Shown piece by piece: positions 1,204-30,154 of a stretch of DNA of 64,000 nt. The translations under genes and the position numbers were made by a program. The number at the start of each line of letters is the position of its first letter. Position 1 is the first letter of the stretch. The notes beneath the pieces are model-generated. The model saw only the letters and a list, made by a program, of their open reading frames with translations. It was not told the origin of the DNA and ran no database searches. The stretch comes from Rikenellaceae bacterium (GTDB lineage Bacteria; Bacteroidota; Bacteroidia; Bacteroidales; Rikenellaceae): NCBI GenBank assembly GCA_015060065.1, contig SUZF01000008.1, positions 19,316 through 83,315 on the forward strand. Direction: 5' to 3'.

Positions 1204-1445
1204 CGAGGGGTTGTGGGTATCCGCAAGGATGCTGCAAAATGGAAATAGTGACCTTGGGAATTTATTCACAAAAGGTCACTATTTTCGTTTTGTGTATTGT
1301 CGCAGACAACAAAACCCTCGTAATAAACCTTATACTGTCAAACTCCCCGAAACGCAGTTTCGGCTGAAAAGTTTTTGCACGCCCTGCTTTTTTCAAAAAG
1401 CGGGCAAATAAAAAAGGTTTTGCGTCGCTTTTTTCTAAAAGCGAC
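1204..1445. other. Cluster of inverted repeats (second REP-like module or structured RNA)
   Basis: 13-bp perfect IR 1243-1255/1272-1284; CCGAAAC-GCA-GTTTCGG 1347-1363; T-run/A-run hairpins at 1381-1405 and 1424-1445. Confidence 0.6.
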
Positions 1446-1461
1446 AAAGAAAAAAGGCTGC

Positions 1462-1499
1462 AAAAAAAAGCGACCATTCTCTATAAGGGAATAGTCGCT
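1462..1499 (-). terminator. Intrinsic terminator of the topA-pepC unit
   Basis: AGCGAC-ATTC...GAAT-GTCGCT stem with an A-run at 1462-1469 (U-tract on minus strand), 20 bp past the pepC stop. Confidence 0.75.
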
Positions 1500-1519
1500 C
1501 TATTATTGAAGGCGGGATT

Positions 1520-2695
1520 TTACAGGCCAAGTTTTGTGCGGATATCGCTTGGGATGGCGTTTTTATTCACCATAAACGACATCGTTTTATACTCCACGAA
1601 GGGGCGTGAGAAGTAGTAGTAGCCACCATAGGGAGGGCGCACGTCCCACGAATTTTTAACCTTAAAGTAGGGATTTCCGATTTGGTCTGTTGCCGTTCCG
1701 ATAATCACCATACCGTGGTCGTCGGTTGTCTCGTAGTTATCGTAAGCCTCTTGGCGCATCTGTTGAGTAATCTTCTTCTCTTTGCCAGGCTTGTCGAACT
1801 TGTAGAGGGCATCCTCCTTCTCCTTTGCCGACAGGCGACCCCAGCGTTCAGCCTCGGTACCGCTCATGCTGTCGAGGTCTGCTTCGGGGATGATACCGAT
1901 GGCCTTTGTGCGGCTGAAACCGCGCTCGCTGACATCTGCTGCCCACATAATCGAGTAGTCGTTGGCAAGGGCATTGTCGATTATCGACATCATCTCCACC
2001 AACGGCACGTTATAGACCGAATCCCAAGCCCAATTGTCGGGAACTTCGATAACAAACTTCGAGTAGAAGGGATGGTGCGTATAAGATGTGATATTCACAT
2101 AGTTATCGATATCGATAGGCAACGACTCGGCAAACGACTTCGGGGTGTACTCCTTACCTTTGTAGGTAAATTTCTCCGGCATAACTCCGAAGTAAGCATC
2201 GAGGATTCCGTTCAGACCGGCCTTCCACGAGGTGGTAAGTTTTCTGTTCGGGTTGCGGATAATGGCATCAACATAAGCCTTCAACACGGCATCAATCTCG
2301 TTGAAATGGGGCTTCTCGGTACCATAGTTCAGACCCGGATAGACCTCCTGTGGAACGATTCCGTAGTTGCGTATTCCGTTAGTTACATCATGGGCTGCGC
2401 CGCCTACCGCAAAGTTCAGGCTGCCATGCAGGCGAACATACTTCACAGCCTTCTCGAAGTAGATATTGCGGACAATCCACATCTCCGAAAGGTCCATCTC
2501 TTCGCCTCCGGCACGCATAATCTCGTTTTCGAGGAACGAGAGTGCCGAGAAGCACCAGCAGGTGCCGCTACGATGTTGGTCTTTGACCGAGGTGGTCTTG
2601 ACGAGTTTGCCATCGGTAAATTTATACCCCTTGTCGGCGTATGCCGAGAGCGAGAGTCCTGCCACGAGGACAAAAAGCAGGGTCAGTCGTTTCAT
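1520..2695 (-). CDS. pepC: Aminopeptidase C / C1B family cysteine peptidase with signal peptide
   Basis: QHRSGTCWCFS catalytic Cys, DDHGM His, KNSW Asn; hydrophobic N-terminus. Confidence 0.9.
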   Translation of the reverse strand: MKRLTLLFVLVAGLSLSAYADKGYKFTDGKLVKTTSVKDQHRSGTCWCFSALSFLENEIMRAGGEEMDLSEMWIVRNIYFEKAVKYVRLHGSLNFAVGGAAHDVTNGIRNYGIVPQEVYPGLNYGTEKPHFNEIDAVLKAYVDAIIRNPNRKLTTSWKAGLNGILDAYFGVMPEKFTYKGKEYTPKSFAESLPIDIDNYVNITSYTHHPFYSKFVIEVPDNWAWDSVYNVPLVEMMSIIDNALANDYSIMWAADVSERGFSRTKAIGIIPEADLDSMSGTEAERWGRLSAKEKEDALYKFDKPGKEKKITQQMRQEAYDNYETTDDHGMVIIGTATDQIGNPYFKVKNSWDVRPPYGGYYYFSRPFVEYKTMSFMVNKNAIPSDIRTKLGL

Positions 2696-20546: not shown

Positions 20547-20634
20547 GGAGAGGTGCAGGAGTGGTTGAACTGGCCCGCCTGGAAAGCGAGTAAACGTCAA
20601 AAACGTTTCAGGGGTTCGAATCCCCTTCTCTCCG
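20547..20634 (+). tRNA. tRNA-Ser(GGA), CCA not encoded
   Basis: Acceptor GGAGAGG/TCTCTCC, D-loop GAGTGG, anticodon loop CT-GGA-AA, long variable arm AAACGT-CAAAA-ACGTTT, T-loop GTTCGAATC. Confidence 0.96.
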
Positions 20635-20652
20635 CAAAGAACAAACGAAGCA

Positions 20653-24516: not shown

Positions 24517-25338
24517 CTAATGTCTAAAAAAGAGTCTGCGCAGAGCGAAGATGGCGTTGTTTATCACGCGATGCAGGTCGTAACTCCATCGGCTCTTGGG
24601 TTTTAGGCGGTCATCAACCATATAGACAGCCTTATAGCATACGCGCATACCTTTATGCAGTGCATAGACCATCAACAATCGCTCGCTGATGTATCCGAAG
24701 ATGCGCCCCTGCACAGGGTCTTTCGGCACCTCAATACGTCGTTCCGCCTCGAAGAGGGTATCGAACAACCACTCCGAATACTCCTCGAAATCCTTGCGTC
24801 GCATAATGAACATATTGAATCGAGCCAGCAGGTTGTTCTCGAAGAATATCTTATCGAAGGCGTCAAGGTATTCGGGCGAGCGTTCTGCGACAATCTCGCG
24901 CACGGTAAGGATATCCTCGCCCCGATGACTGCGGGCATACTCGGTGTAGATATTGCGAGTCTGCACCCTCGGCTTCGAGAGAACGATATCGTACTCCTTA
25001 AAAACCTCGTCCATATCAGGCAGAGGATGCTCCTCGGAAAAGAAACTCTCCGTGCGGACAATATGCACATTTCCCGGCTCGTTACCAAAGTCGAAGTAGC
25101 GACGGTAGTGGCTCAAACCGACATACTCCGCCTCTCCAAGGTTTTTCCAAGCCCAATAGTGCGCCGTAAGTTCGCAAAAACTGCGATTCTTGTCGCTGAT
25201 ATTATCGCCCGTGTCGTCACCCGTGAAGCCCAAATCGACCGAAGAGATTGCCTTGCCGACCTGAATCGGCATATACGGCTCATGTGCCAGACAGCGGTCC
25301 TGCTTATGGGCGCAGACCAAGATTACAGTTTTGCTCAT
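24517..25338 (-). CDS. DUF4422-domain protein (putative galactofuranosyl transferase)
   Basis: YMPIQVG, DDTGDNISDKNRSFCELTAHYWAWKN, GLSHYRRYF, NMFIM, RIFGYISERL; coupled to glf. Confidence 0.85.
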   Translation of the reverse strand: MSKTVILVCAHKQDRCLAHEPYMPIQVGKAISSVDLGFTGDDTGDNISDKNRSFCELTAHYWAWKNLGEAEYVGLSHYRRYFDFGNEPGNVHIVRTESFFSEEHPLPDMDEVFKEYDIVLSKPRVQTRNIYTEYARSHRGEDILTVREIVAERSPEYLDAFDKIFFENNLLARFNMFIMRRKDFEEYSEWLFDTLFEAERRIEVPKDPVQGRIFGYISERLLMVYALHKGMRVCYKAVYMVDDRLKPKSRWSYDLHRVINNAIFALRRLFFRH

Positions 25339-26429
25339 TGTATCTCCAATTTAAGTGCGCTCTCGATAACTTTGTCCATATCGTAGTAGCGATACTCGCC
25401 CAAACGACCGCCAAACGTAACCTTCTCGTCTGCGGCCGCCAGGGCGCGATAACGCTCATAGAGGGCATTGTTGCGCTCGTCGTTAATGGGATAGTAAGGC
25501 TCCTTGCCCTCGCCAAACTGTTCGGGATACTCGCGTGTGATGACGGTCGAGGGTTGCTTTCCAAACTCGAAGTGCTTATGTTCGATGATGCGCGTATATG
25601 GCACCTCGCGCTCGGTGTAATTTACCACGGCACAGCCCTGATAATTCTCCATGGGCAGGTTTTCGTGTTCGAAACGCAGCGAGCGGTAGTCCAAAGCACC
25701 GAATCGGAAGTCGTAATACTCGTCGATACGACCTGTGAAGATAACCCTATCGCACTGTGATAGCCACTCCTCGCGGTCGGCAAAGAAGTCGGTATTGCAA
25801 CGCACCTCGACACCCTCGAACAAGGCATCTATAATCTTATTGTAGCCACCAATCGGTATTCCCTGCCAGCGGTCGTTGAAGTAGTTATTGTCGAAGGTCA
25901 GGCGCACCGGCAGACGACGGATAATGAACGCCGGCAACTCCTTGGCATCGCACCCCCACTGCTTCTCGGTATAACCCTTGACCAACCTCTCGTAGATATC
26001 CCGACCCACAAGCGATATCGCCTGCTCTTCGAGGTTCTGCGGCTCGGTAATGCCCGCCTCGCGACGCTGCTCCTCGATTTTTGCCTGCGCTTCGGCAGGG
26101 GTTATCACTCCCCACATGGCATGAAAGGTGTTCATATTGAAGGGGAGGTTATAGAGTCGTCCCTTGTAGTTTGCCACAGGCGAATTTACATAGTTGTTGA
26201 ACTCGGCAAAGCGATTTACGAACTCCCAAACCTCGCGATTCGATGTATGGAAGATGTGCGCTCCGTATTTATGGACATTTATACCGTCAATCTCTTCGCA
26301 GTAGATATTTCCGCCACGATGAGGTCGCTTCTCCAAAACAAGGACACTACGTCCCGCCTGCCTTGCCCGCCACGCAACCACGGCACCAAACAGACCGGCT
26401 CCGACAATCAGATAATCATACTTTTTCAT
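25335..26429 (-). CDS. glf: UDP-galactopyranose mutase
   Basis: YDYLIVGAGLFG, GGNIY, HKYGAHIFHT, YTEKQWG, YTRIIEHKHF, PYYP, GRLGEYRYYDMD; start 26429 or 26435; -7 box at 26463-26470. Confidence 0.96.
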   Translation of the reverse strand: MKKYDYLIVGAGLFGAVVAWRARQAGRSVLVLEKRPHRGGNIYCEEIDGINVHKYGAHIFHTSNREVWEFVNRFAEFNNYVNSPVANYKGRLYNLPFNMNTFHAMWGVITPAEAQAKIEEQRREAGITEPQNLEEQAISLVGRDIYERLVKGYTEKQWGCDAKELPAFIIRRLPVRLTFDNNYFNDRWQGIPIGGYNKIIDALFEGVEVRCNTDFFADREEWLSQCDRVIFTGRIDEYYDFRFGALDYRSLRFEHENLPMENYQGCAVVNYTEREVPYTRIIEHKHFEFGKQPSTVITREYPEQFGEGKEPYYPINDERNNALYERYRALAAADEKVTFGGRLGEYRYYDMDKVIESALKLEIQ

Positions 26430-26716
26430 AACCATTTGGCGGTTTTTCTCCGCTACTATACGCAAAGGTAACAAAATCCGTCGGCAAATCAAAATTTTTG
26501 CCCACAACCACTCACTTATAGCCATTAACCCCACTTTTAGAGATAAAAGTTTCGAAAAAAAGTATTAAACCAAACTTTCACAAAAACACATAACACACTG
26601 TTTATCAATGATAAACCCCAAAACCACACGGGGTGTAATGAAAAAATATCAAAAAATTATGAAAATTTTTTATAAAATACTTGCACGGAATCAAAAAAGC
26701 CCTTATCTTTGCAGCG

Positions 26717-26846
26717 AAGTTTTAAGGTTCATTTAGGTTAGTAGTTTTAGGTTGGTAGAGGAAACGGAAGGTTGCAACGATAGTTGCTAAGACTCACAGG
26801 CGGTGCTCGCTTGGAGTCGAATACCTCCGCAACCTCGATTTTTTTT
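26717..26846 (+). ncRNA. Candidate small stable RNA
   Basis: TATCTTTG at 26704-26711 with AT-rich upstream region, no ORF, several stems, ends in T8 run. Confidence 0.45.
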
Positions 26847-26966
26847 GCCCATACCTCAACCACCCCAACCCATTTCAAGGCGAAAATCTTCAAATCTCGA
26901 TTGCAAAATTATCTCTATTTGCTATATTTGTATCCGAATCCGCAACATACTGCGGAGTAGGTGCTT

Positions 26967-28139
26967 ATGGCTATACTAAACTACTACCTGATTATCGTCA
27001 TTTTTCTCCTCACCCCGGCAGGTGTAATATGGTTGTGTCGCAGATTCCCGCTTCTCGACAAGATTGGACCCATTATGATTCTCTACGCTGTGGGGATGAT
27101 TTTTGGCAATATGCCCTTCGCTCCGGAGGAGATTGCCCCGATACAGGAGATTATGCCCAATGTGCTGATTCCGTTAGCGATACCGATGATGTTATTCGGC
27201 TGTTCGTTTTCGAGCAAGGATGCTCCATTGCAGTTGAGGGTCGTCTCTTCGGGATTTATCTCTGTGGTTGTGGCAGTTGTTGTGGGCTACCTGCTCTTTG
27301 GCTGCAAAGTCAAGGAGGGAGCCGAAATCGGAGGCATAATTACGGGTATGTACACCGGAGGAACACTCAACGCAGCGGCTCTGCAAGCGATATTCCGCAT
27401 AAACAGCGAGCAATTCATTCTGATAAACTCCTACGACATCATTATCTCGTTCCTCTACTTCGTCTTTCTGTTCGGTATCGGAATACGCCTCTTCCGTTGG
27501 CTCTATGGCGAGAAACGCTTTGCGGAGAAGATGACACAGAGCGAAGCACCCGCAACCGAAGTGCAACCGACTGTCATCAAAGAAAATCCATACAAAAAAC
27601 TATGCACCAAGGCAGGAGCCATCCAACTTGGCAAGATTCTACTCACAACACTTGCCATCGTTGCCATCTCGGCAGGTGTAGCGTTGTTGCTGCCCGAACA
27701 GTGGTTTATGGTGGTTTTCATCTTGTTGCTGACCACCCTCGGTGTGTTGAGTTCGTTTATCCGCCCCGTGCGCGAGTTGGATGTGGCGTATGATGTGGGA
27801 ATGTACCTTATCTACGTGTTCAGCATGGTTATCGCCTCGATGGCAGACTTCTCGAACCTCGACCTGCGCGGTGGGGTCTATCAACTCGCATTTATGACAA
27901 TAGCGGTATTCCTATCGTTGGCAATTCACGCCATACTCTGCCGCCTGATGAAGGTCGATGCCGACTCGATGGTCATATCGTCAGTGGCATTTATCAATTC
28001 CCCACCCTTCGTTCCGATGGTTGTAGCAGCGATGAATAACAAGAGAAGCCTTGTAACGGGTCTGGGCGCAGGAATCGTGGGCTACGCCCTTGGCAACCAC
28101 CTCGGCGTCTTGGTTGCAGAGTTGTTGTCGAGACTCTAA
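26967..28139 (+). CDS. DUF819 family membrane protein
   Basis: About 10 TM segments; GMYTGGTLN, SVAFINSPPFVP, GYALGNHLG; own -7 box at 26923-26930. Confidence 0.85.
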   Translation: MAILNYYLIIVIFLLTPAGVIWLCRRFPLLDKIGPIMILYAVGMIFGNMPFAPEEIAPIQEIMPNVLIPLAIPMMLFGCSFSSKDAPLQLRVVSSGFISVVVAVVVGYLLFGCKVKEGAEIGGIITGMYTGGTLNAAALQAIFRINSEQFILINSYDIIISFLYFVFLFGIGIRLFRWLYGEKRFAEKMTQSEAPATEVQPTVIKENPYKKLCTKAGAIQLGKILLTTLAIVAISAGVALLLPEQWFMVVFILLLTTLGVLSSFIRPVRELDVAYDVGMYLIYVFSMVIASMADFSNLDLRGGVYQLAFMTIAVFLSLAIHAILCRLMKVDADSMVISSVAFINSPPFVPMVVAAMNNKRSLVTGLGAGIVGYALGNHLGVLVAELLSRL

Positions 28140-29704: not shown

Positions 29705-29965
29705 GCCGGGTGTTTTCGGAGGGGGTGGCTTATGGGAAAGCGTTTATTCTGCGCTGAACATCTGCAAACCGTTTGAAAACCAAGCGCAACGAAGGGTGAA
29801 AAGGGAATCCGGTGCAAATCCGGAACAATGCCTGTTGCTGTGAGTCCGCCTCTGTTGCCGACAGTTTGGTCGAGTGTAAAATTTCAGAGGGTTGCTTATC
29901 GTAATCTATTGCCACTGGGAGACCGGGAAGGCGCGATAAGTGGACAAGTCAGAAGACCTGCCTGT
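29705..29965 (+). promoter_or_regulatory. Cobalamin (AdoCbl) riboswitch
   Basis: AAAAGGGAATCCGGTGCAAATCCGG, GCTGTGAG, GCCACTGGGAGACCGGGAAGG, AAGTCAGAAGACCTGCC; promoter TACCTTTG at 29673-29680; upstream of btu genes; 5' boundary approximate. Confidence 0.93.
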
Positions 29966-30154
29966 GTGATTAAGATTTTGGACCTGCAGGATTATGGGTT
30001 GGAATCAAAATACTTTACAACCATAACAGTCAGGTTTTTAGTGTGGGGCCGCCATGGCGCGAACACATTTTAGGGGCGGGTGGCATAATCCGCACCGCAA
30101 AGAGACAACCGGTGGCAGGTTTTATTGGTTATAGAGTTTTTGAGTCGAGCATAG

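Follow-up and report, generated by a model that had tools for sequence, protein, structure and literature searches.

A putative Rikenellaceae small RNA family with a tandem U/G-rich 5' module and a three-way-junction 3' domain

The intergenic gap between glf and a DUF819 gene of a gut Alistipes genome (Rikenellaceae) very probably contains the gene for a separately transcribed small regulatory RNA (sRNA) of about 130 nt. The gene lies in a stretch of 64,000 nt, the whole of which was analyzed and is referred to as the window. Its proposed product belongs to a Rikenellaceae-wide family that appears undescribed, since neither Rfam 15 nor the literature searched contains it; no regulatory RNA of Alistipes and its relatives is described in that literature. 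The features that appear to be new are the tandem-unit architecture of the 5' module, a three-way junction supported by covariation, the linkage of a short form of the RNA to tRNA-Leu genes, and a 9-mer shared with FopS; the negative findings for RRM partners and for co-evolution are also new. The reading preferred here, by analogy and with modest confidence, is that of a trans-acting sRNA which acts by base-pairing at translation initiation regions in the manner of FopS and GibS.

Direct reading of the gap reveals a promoter, a U/G-rich part, a G+C-richer folded part, and a run of eight T (Table 1). The promoter type follows the Bacteroidota consensus that PMC11697453 cites from earlier published studies of Bacteroides promoters. 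A sequence-only reading of the same DNA had already proposed a consensus promoter, an unstructured U/G-rich 5' part, a closing T8 run, the lack of an open reading frame, and a separate promoter for the DUF819 gene, and each of these proposals was borne out. The -7 box, the -33 element, and the AT-rich stretch are all present, the 5' part is unpaired in the centroid fold, the element contains no conserved ORF, and the T8 run and the DUF819 promoter are found where they had been placed. In orthologues the CTTGCAC context of the -33 element is retained, and a similarly AT-rich stretch is located 5' of every listed copy of the module. Within the genome of the window, the 7-mers of the -7 box are the most over-represented words upstream of genes. 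Judged by its distance from the -7 box, the 5' end of the RNA would fall at about 26716-26719, approximately 5-8 nt past the box, and transcription from there to the U8 tract would give the predicted length of ~130 nt. In short-form orthologues a closing helix is likewise followed by a T-run, while in large-genome species two extra hairpins are inserted ahead of the last T-run. Elsewhere in the window, a cobalamin riboswitch (RF00174, 61 bits) was found at 29745-29979 on the plus strand, upstream of a lipoprotein/fimbrillin-like region.

Table 1. Coordinates of the candidate sRNA gene, its predicted parts, and the flanking genes, numbered within the window.
Feature	Position	Strand	Basis or remark
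glf	25335-26534	minus	PF03275
AT-rich, UP-element-like stretch upstream of the -33 element	26640-26680	+	Sequence; function putative
-33 element TTG(C), Bacteroidota-type promoter	26681-26684	+	20-nt spacer to the -7 box
-7 box TATCTTTG	26704-26711	+	Sequence; retained in nearly all copies, across genera
Near-invariant single-stranded 5' module, three tandem U/G-rich units	26716-26758	+	Conservation, centroid fold
Module units 1 / 2 / 3	26720-26731 / 26732-26744 / 26745-26758	+	12-14 nt each
P1, 5' strand GAGG	26758-26761	+	Pairs with 26833-26836; MFE and centroid
P2, 5' strand (CGG, bulged A, AGGU)	26765-26772	+	Pairs with 26823-26829
P3 hairpin	26774-26787	+	26774-26778 with 26783-26787; 5 bp, GAUA loop; longer in other species
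P3/P4 junction, part of CUAAGA	26788-26790	+	(Nearly) invariant columns in alignment A1
P4 hairpin	26791-26818	+	Outer 26791-26795/26814-26818, inner 26798-26802/26808-26812
P4 apex GGUGCUC, near-invariant	26802-26808	+	G26802-C26808 closes the 5-nt loop GUGCU (26803-26807)
P4/P2 junction GAAU	26819-26822	+	Invariant columns in alignment A1
3' strands of P2 (26823-26829) and P1 (26833-26836)	26823-26836	+	Covariation, MFE
U8 tract, predicted intrinsic terminator jointly with P1/P2	26839-26846	+	Sequence
DUF819 promoter, TTG and TATATTTG	26901-26903 and 26923-26930	+	Same Bacteroidota type
DUF819 gene	26961-28139	plus	PF05684

As judged by folding and comparative analysis, the 3' half adopts a three-way junction with two closing helices. 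When folded alone, this domain (26757-26838) reaches -35.4 kcal/mol with a z-score of -4.23, a value that none of 200 shuffled sequences attained, and its MFE structure is the three-way junction closed by P1. The full 130 nt give a z-score of just -1.82 because the 5' third is unstructured, the first ~40 nt being unpaired in the centroid. Covariation was assessed in an alignment of 23 orthologues (A1). Here 98.3% of the cells of the three-way junction were paired and 13 of the 21 pairs showed changes on both sides, while 0 of 500 shuffles reached any of these measures. These compensatory changes show that selection acts at the RNA level. They were found in 5 of 6 pairs of P3 (helix 2) and in 7 of 8 pairs of P4 (helices 3 and 4). 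P2 (helix 1) contains 7 pairs, with 99.4% of cells paired and one pair with a compensatory change, and the pairs of P1 are invariant and hence offer no covariation evidence. The same GAGG that begins P1 also opens the terminator hairpin of the short paralogues.

This structure differs from the tRNA-like 3' domain that had been proposed in the sequence-only reading. There, AGGTTGC/GCAACCT and GGAG/CTCC were preferred as an acceptor stem with a stacked T-arm, and the stems GCAAC/GTTGC, GACTC/GAGTC, and AGGCG/CGCTT were listed as alternatives. All of these stems can indeed be drawn where they were placed, but it is the supposed alternatives that make up the fold supported by covariation. The preferred acceptor/T-arm-like fold of 11 pairs was rejected: over the 23 orthologues only 56.4% of its cells were paired, there were no compensatory changes, and 452 of 500 shuffles performed as well. 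It was no better than slid controls either. The strand that had been taken for a T-loop forms the P4/P2 junction in the supported fold. The search for homologues which had been suggested did recover orthologues, whose covariation backs the three-way junction instead of the tRNA-like pairs.

A tRNA-like or tRNA-derived element, whose 3' domain would mimic an acceptor/T-arm either for tRNA enzymes or as an integration site, is accordingly a highly implausible explanation. What it has on its side is that a stack of 7 bp and 4 bp is drawable in this one genome, that the junction strand UCGAAUA resembles a T-loop minus one base, and that one species carries a duplicate of the 3' domain ~550 bp downstream, as at integration sites. 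The 7-bp closing helix and the T-loop-like UCGAAUA are the points of likeness to tRNA, tmRNA, and tRNA-like domains; the element differs from them in being a three-way junction, not a cloverleaf, with both detectors and covariation negative. The tRNA-like pairs, kept in just 56% of cells and without any compensatory change, are mutually exclusive with the covarying P2-P4, and a CCA/discriminator context is absent. ARAGORN detected only one tRNA gene in the window, a tRNA-Ser at 20547-20635, and cmscan with Rfam RF00005 and the tmRNA models returned no match at 26717-26846 with E values up to 10. The duplicate mentioned above is a near-exact repeat of the three-way-junction domain (L008:953-1044, minus strand, genome G014) from which the 5' module is absent; it looks like the product of an insertion into the 3' end of the gene.

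Membership in a known Rfam family had also been considered. No family of Rfam 15 was found at the element at the gathering score, and on its own strand positions 26724-26846 gave nothing at E values up to 10. The sole plus-strand overlap was a chance snoRNA match ending at 26723, and a chance lincRNA match was found on the opposite strand. A short-form copy likewise had no match, in a copy of Rfam for which the presence of a FopS/GibS model is unconfirmed.

The distribution of the RNA was examined with BLAST and with a covariance model of the long form (R1). BLAST recovered the element in 33 of 36 genomes from the genus, while a search of 24 other families of the order gave no match. The 5' part searched alone was found in 227 of 301 Rikenellaceae genomes and in 21 of 31 genera, with one to three copies per genome joined to unrelated 3' domains. 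An exact 30-mer of the module occurs in at least 120 public contigs, all of them named Alistipes, Tidjanibacter, or Rikenellaceae save one ('bacterium isolate'). R1 detected nothing in 148 other families of the order, nor in five Rikenellaceae genomes which BLAST had scored as negative. Relatives outside the family were also sought with a 21-nt pattern allowing up to 3 mismatches, and were rejected as the number of genomes with a match was about equal to that for a reversed control. A mobile-element origin was rejected as well, there being no phage or plasmid match.

The 5' module is the most conserved segment of the RNA and it recurs in paralogues, in agreement with the functional single-stranded 5' part that had been predicted from the sequence. 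Between species the 5' 65 nt are 95-100% identical. In 63 aligned copies from many genera, each of the positions 26716-26753 is identical in 87-100% of copies; variable positions within unit 3 are 26754 (37/63) and 26757 (27/57). The number of units is three in the window copy and ranges from two to five across genera; one copy from another genus has two, and a copy from a third genus has four to five. The latter copy (L059 of genome G085, 1336-1645, minus strand) is followed ~150 nt downstream by a second, partial copy of the sRNA, and its unit array indicates that unit number is evolutionarily plastic.

Bit scores of R1 are bimodal. Of 14 genomes sampled from the genus, 13 gave scores of at least 121, as did 1 of 15 genomes of a second genus, and all remaining copies scored 71 or less. 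The form usual in the other genera is shorter (~90-95 nt) and consists of the module and a plain terminator hairpin. Since this hairpin begins with the same GAGG, the three-way junction is best regarded as an expanded terminator stem. In the genome of the window (G000) the long form is the sole copy, whereas A. finegoldii, A. shahii, and A. onderdonkii seem to possess the long and the short form, ~0.4-0.6 kb from each other. Outside the window, a further ORF-free unit running from promoter to terminator was noticed in genome G000 (G000:C34:14779-14934, equal to L073:380-535), with the unit-like GGGUUAGUAGUUUUAGG in its 5' part. This unit occurs in 23 of the 24 genus genomes compared, with up to three copies per genome and no Rfam match. 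By analogy with GibS and FopS, it is possibly a second sRNA family with a partly common seed.

The genomic context indicates that the element is a gene in its own right. Apart from this genome, glf adjoins it in a single species and DUF819 in no species, and the sequence past the terminator is unrelated between species. Because the neighbors differ in this way, the element is not the leader of the DUF819 gene, a possibility which had been raised as a potential refutation of the sRNA and which is ruled out by synteny; DUF819 lies downstream solely here and is preceded by its own promoter. The earlier proposal of an independent sRNA fits the data well, as the element has its own consensus promoter and terminator and is kept in 33 of the 36 genus genomes despite changing neighbors. 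Its product would be a discrete 'stable RNA'.

A different context was found for the short form. In at least 10 loci of other genera it is located 7-120 nt upstream of tRNA-Leu(GAG) and tRNA-Leu(CAG) genes on the same strand (L034, L037, L040, L042, L044, L047, L051, L056, L057, and L060 are loci linked to tRNA-Leu). At L056 only ~6 nt separate the sRNA 3' end from the tRNA, and the gap at L050 also appears too short for a promoter; in these cases transcription past the sRNA terminator may produce the tRNAs. The long form of several Alistipes species is followed within 0.1-1.4 kb by a tRNA-Glu(CTC) gene. The window copy adjoins no tRNA gene, and the tRNA-Leu(GAG) of this genome has its own promoter and lacks the element. 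The arrangement is reminiscent of 3'ETS-leuZ of E. coli in that the short form is codirectional with, and directly beside, tRNA-Leu genes in many Rikenellaceae genera. It differs in being upstream, not in the 3' trailer, and in having its own promoter and terminator.

These linkages could be taken to favor a cis-acting leader or attenuator, in which the junction senses a signal and decides between termination and read-through into the downstream gene (DUF819 here, tRNAs elsewhere). A structured domain with conserved junction bases immediately before the U-tract would suit such a device, as would the short distance to the tRNA-Leu genes, some of which leave no room for a promoter, and the nearby tRNA-Glu(CTC) of Alistipes. 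However, there is no constant class of downstream gene: what follows the element is unrelated between species, DUF819 follows in this genome only and has a consensus promoter, and tRNA-Leu(GAG) has a promoter of its own here and no copy of the element. Moreover, it is the 5' module that is conserved, not a platform bound to one downstream gene class. The attenuator explanation is therefore considered quite improbable.

Even less weight is given to the possibility that the conserved 60 bp act at the DNA level, as a promoter with an array of transcription-factor operators, the RNA being incidental. Conservation does begin at the -7 box, and the unit spacing of 10-14 bp is close to one helical turn. 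Yet the conserved block is located past the transcription start, a helix and a T-run come after it in every case, the sequence past the terminator is unrelated between copies, and the compensatory changes reveal selection on the RNA structure of the same transcript, which makes this explanation very improbable. A type III toxin-antitoxin system (ToxI-like) was also rejected, as no conserved protein gene follows the copies and the units are 12-14 nt in length, not ~36 nt.

The closest functional parallels were found in Bacteroides thetaiotaomicron. FopS is a multicopy sRNA that consists of a conserved single-stranded 5' stretch and a terminator, and it represses susC mRNAs at the start codon (PMC11697453). 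For both FopS and GibS it was shown experimentally that pairing blocks translation initiation (PMC11697453, PMC7366714). The RNA described here shares with them a promoter of the Bacteroidota type, an extended single-stranded conserved 5' seed, an intrinsic terminator, and multicopy paralogues with a common seed. A long form with additional hairpins and a short form are found in both cases (GibS ~145 nt and FopS ~65-70 nt, compared with ~130 and ~90-95 nt here), and in silico the predicted target sites fall in the initiation regions of genes for SusC-type proteins and glycan degradation. The 9-mer UUUAAGGUU, which forms the core of unit 1, is identical in the 5' region of the FopS consensus and in the Northern probe AWO-590 (PMC11697453, Supplementary Data 2). 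Moreover, FopS target sites listed in PMC11697453 bear a leader motif of the AAC(C/U)UUAA type. The best local alignment of the module with the FopS consensus scored 22, compared with 20.7 +/- 3.7 for shuffles, 38% of which did equally well. A common 9-mer without overall alignment was treated as a sign of the same working principle and target motif, not of common descent.

The differences are also considerable. Overall homology to FopS and GibS was not detected and there is no Rfam family match; among the genomes searched the element is restricted to Rikenellaceae. The seed is a tandem array of two to five units where FopS has one stretch, and the copy number per genome is one to three, as opposed to 14. 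Linkage of the short form to tRNA-Leu genes is a further difference, and a three-way-junction 3' domain is not described for FopS or GibS in the text of PMC11697453 and PMC7366714. Finally, several sRNA-bearing genomes lack a counterpart of RbpB, the RRM partner of FopS. No match to RRM_1 (PF00076) was found in the genome of the window (92% complete) or in the complete genomes of the sRNA carriers G004 and G086, and the analogy with FopS and RbpB is in this respect incomplete. A partner of the RbpB type was thus left unsupported. Across the family, the distribution of RRM_1 (RbpB-like) proteins is patchy and does not follow that of the sRNA, such proteins being present in G011 and G160 as opposed to G000, G004, G086, and G067.

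Complementarity to mRNA leaders was then analyzed in silico. Genes were predicted with a home-made caller based on codon usage, which yielded 1343 genes with crude starts, and the module was compared with the region from -50 to +21 of each start. Contiguous matches of at least 12 bp, with G-U pairs allowed, numbered 19, compared with 10.9 +/- 5.0 for shuffled sRNAs; this is suggestive but not significant. The motif AAC(C/T)T(T)AAA, to which the core of the units is complementary, has a striking placement, as 49 of its 265 genomic sites are located 11-30 nt upstream of predicted starts. The motif exceeded its own reverse by 49 to 16 in leaders, or by 18 to 0 in a stricter form, and ranked first to third among 168-420 permutations of the same composition. 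In genome G000, a motif of the AAAAC(C/T)T(T)AAA type is over-represented from -30 to -11 of predicted starts.

Genes for glycan use are prominent among the predicted targets. Initiation-region sites of 12-13 bp were found in two of the six full SusC genes and in 17 of 1331 other genes (Fisher p = 0.003), and one of the two SusC sites spans the AUG. Eight of the 19 best matches are glycan-related, comprising the 2 SusC genes, GH3, GH2, GH123, an aldose epimerase, and two esterases. In other species of the genus, 3 of 30 SusC leaders contained a match of at least 12 bp where 0.39 would be expected, a number reached by 1% of shuffles. The leader motif also precedes the housekeeping genes infB, rplL, and frr. 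The ratio of motif to reverse was 14:4 in two genomes without the sRNA and 71:22 in three genomes with it. This equal ratio marks the motif as a general leader feature and gives no signal of co-evolution. Co-evolution of the motif with the sRNA was rejected, as the higher frequency in leaders of genomes with the sRNA than in those without it (3.8% vs 1.7%, p = 0.003) was matched by an identical odds ratio for the reversed control. The over-represented motif was also observed in one sRNA-free member of the family and in one sRNA-free outgroup. In leaders of Bacteroidales the motif may itself have a part in translation initiation. Mimicry of rRNA was considered unlikely and set aside because no single-stranded stretch resembling a unit occurs in the 16S rRNA of a family member.

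In the preferred base-pairing reading, the locus would be an independent gene encoding the 'long form' (type A) of a multicopy Rikenellaceae sRNA family. The unstructured 5' module, with its three tandem U/G-rich units, would be the working part. Each unit would pair, with G-U wobbles allowed, to the A/C-rich AAC(C/U)U(U)AAA or to its extension CUAAC(C/U)UAAA, located 11-30 nt upstream of the start codon or across it in many mRNAs. The targets would include SusC-type outer-membrane transporters and glycan-degrading enzymes, and pairing at the leader motif would block translation initiation. In vivo, such pairing would presumably result in repression. The occurrence of the module at one to three loci per genome with unrelated 3' domains is what would be expected for a common seed. 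The 3' half would be an elaborated terminator, in which the plain hairpin of the short paralogues has grown into a three-way junction; the latter probably confers stability or provides a second contact surface.

The main rival is a sponge or scaffold RNA whose tandem units would bind an RNA-binding protein and so sequester or deliver it. Such RNAs are known in CsrB/RsmZ (GGA motifs) and CrcZ (A-rich motifs), which resemble the present RNA in having a repeated short single-stranded motif with a copy number that varies by lineage. The tandem arrangement of the units and their number, two to five between genera, would be compatible with this role. The near-total invariance of the module, spacers included, exceeds the apparent need of degenerate mRNA targets. 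Furthermore, the strong AT-rich promoter context and the tRNA linkage in many genera suggest an abundant RNA, and the target statistics are merely modest. Unlike the motifs of those RNAs, the units here are not in hairpin loops. Against a sponge, their complement is a position-specific motif of mRNA leaders, which a pure protein-binding site would not predict. No candidate partner was found either, as RRM_1 proteins are lacking here and in two complete genomes which carry the sRNA. To our knowledge, Bacteroidota do not typically have CsrA, Hfq, or ProQ. The sponge is consequently regarded as unlikely.

A broader role as a global 'anti-leader' regulator can also be envisaged, and is judged improbable. 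Ancestrally, an abundant RNA would have been made from a strongly promoted unit common with tRNA-Leu(GAG) or tRNA-Leu(CAG). Its two to five tandem seeds would allow one molecule to cover several of the generic Bacteroidales leader motifs, so that translation of a few per cent of mRNAs, above all those for transporters and glycan enzymes, would be tied to growth or tRNA supply. In Alistipes, the terminator would then have been rebuilt as a three-way junction that binds a protein or ligand and gates this activity.

For Alistipes and its relatives, which are abundant in the gut, the locus provides a well-defined and very conserved candidate for a regulatory RNA, with a structure supported by covariation and a target motif that can be tested. 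The findings suggest that seed-type sRNA control of SusC and glycan-utilization genes, so far known from FopS and GibS of Bacteroides, extends to a second family. The version in this family differs in its tandem seeds and, in some species, apparently works without an RRM partner. The RNA family does not embody a new principle, but it would be worth adding to Rfam and could open up the RNA biology of Rikenellaceae.
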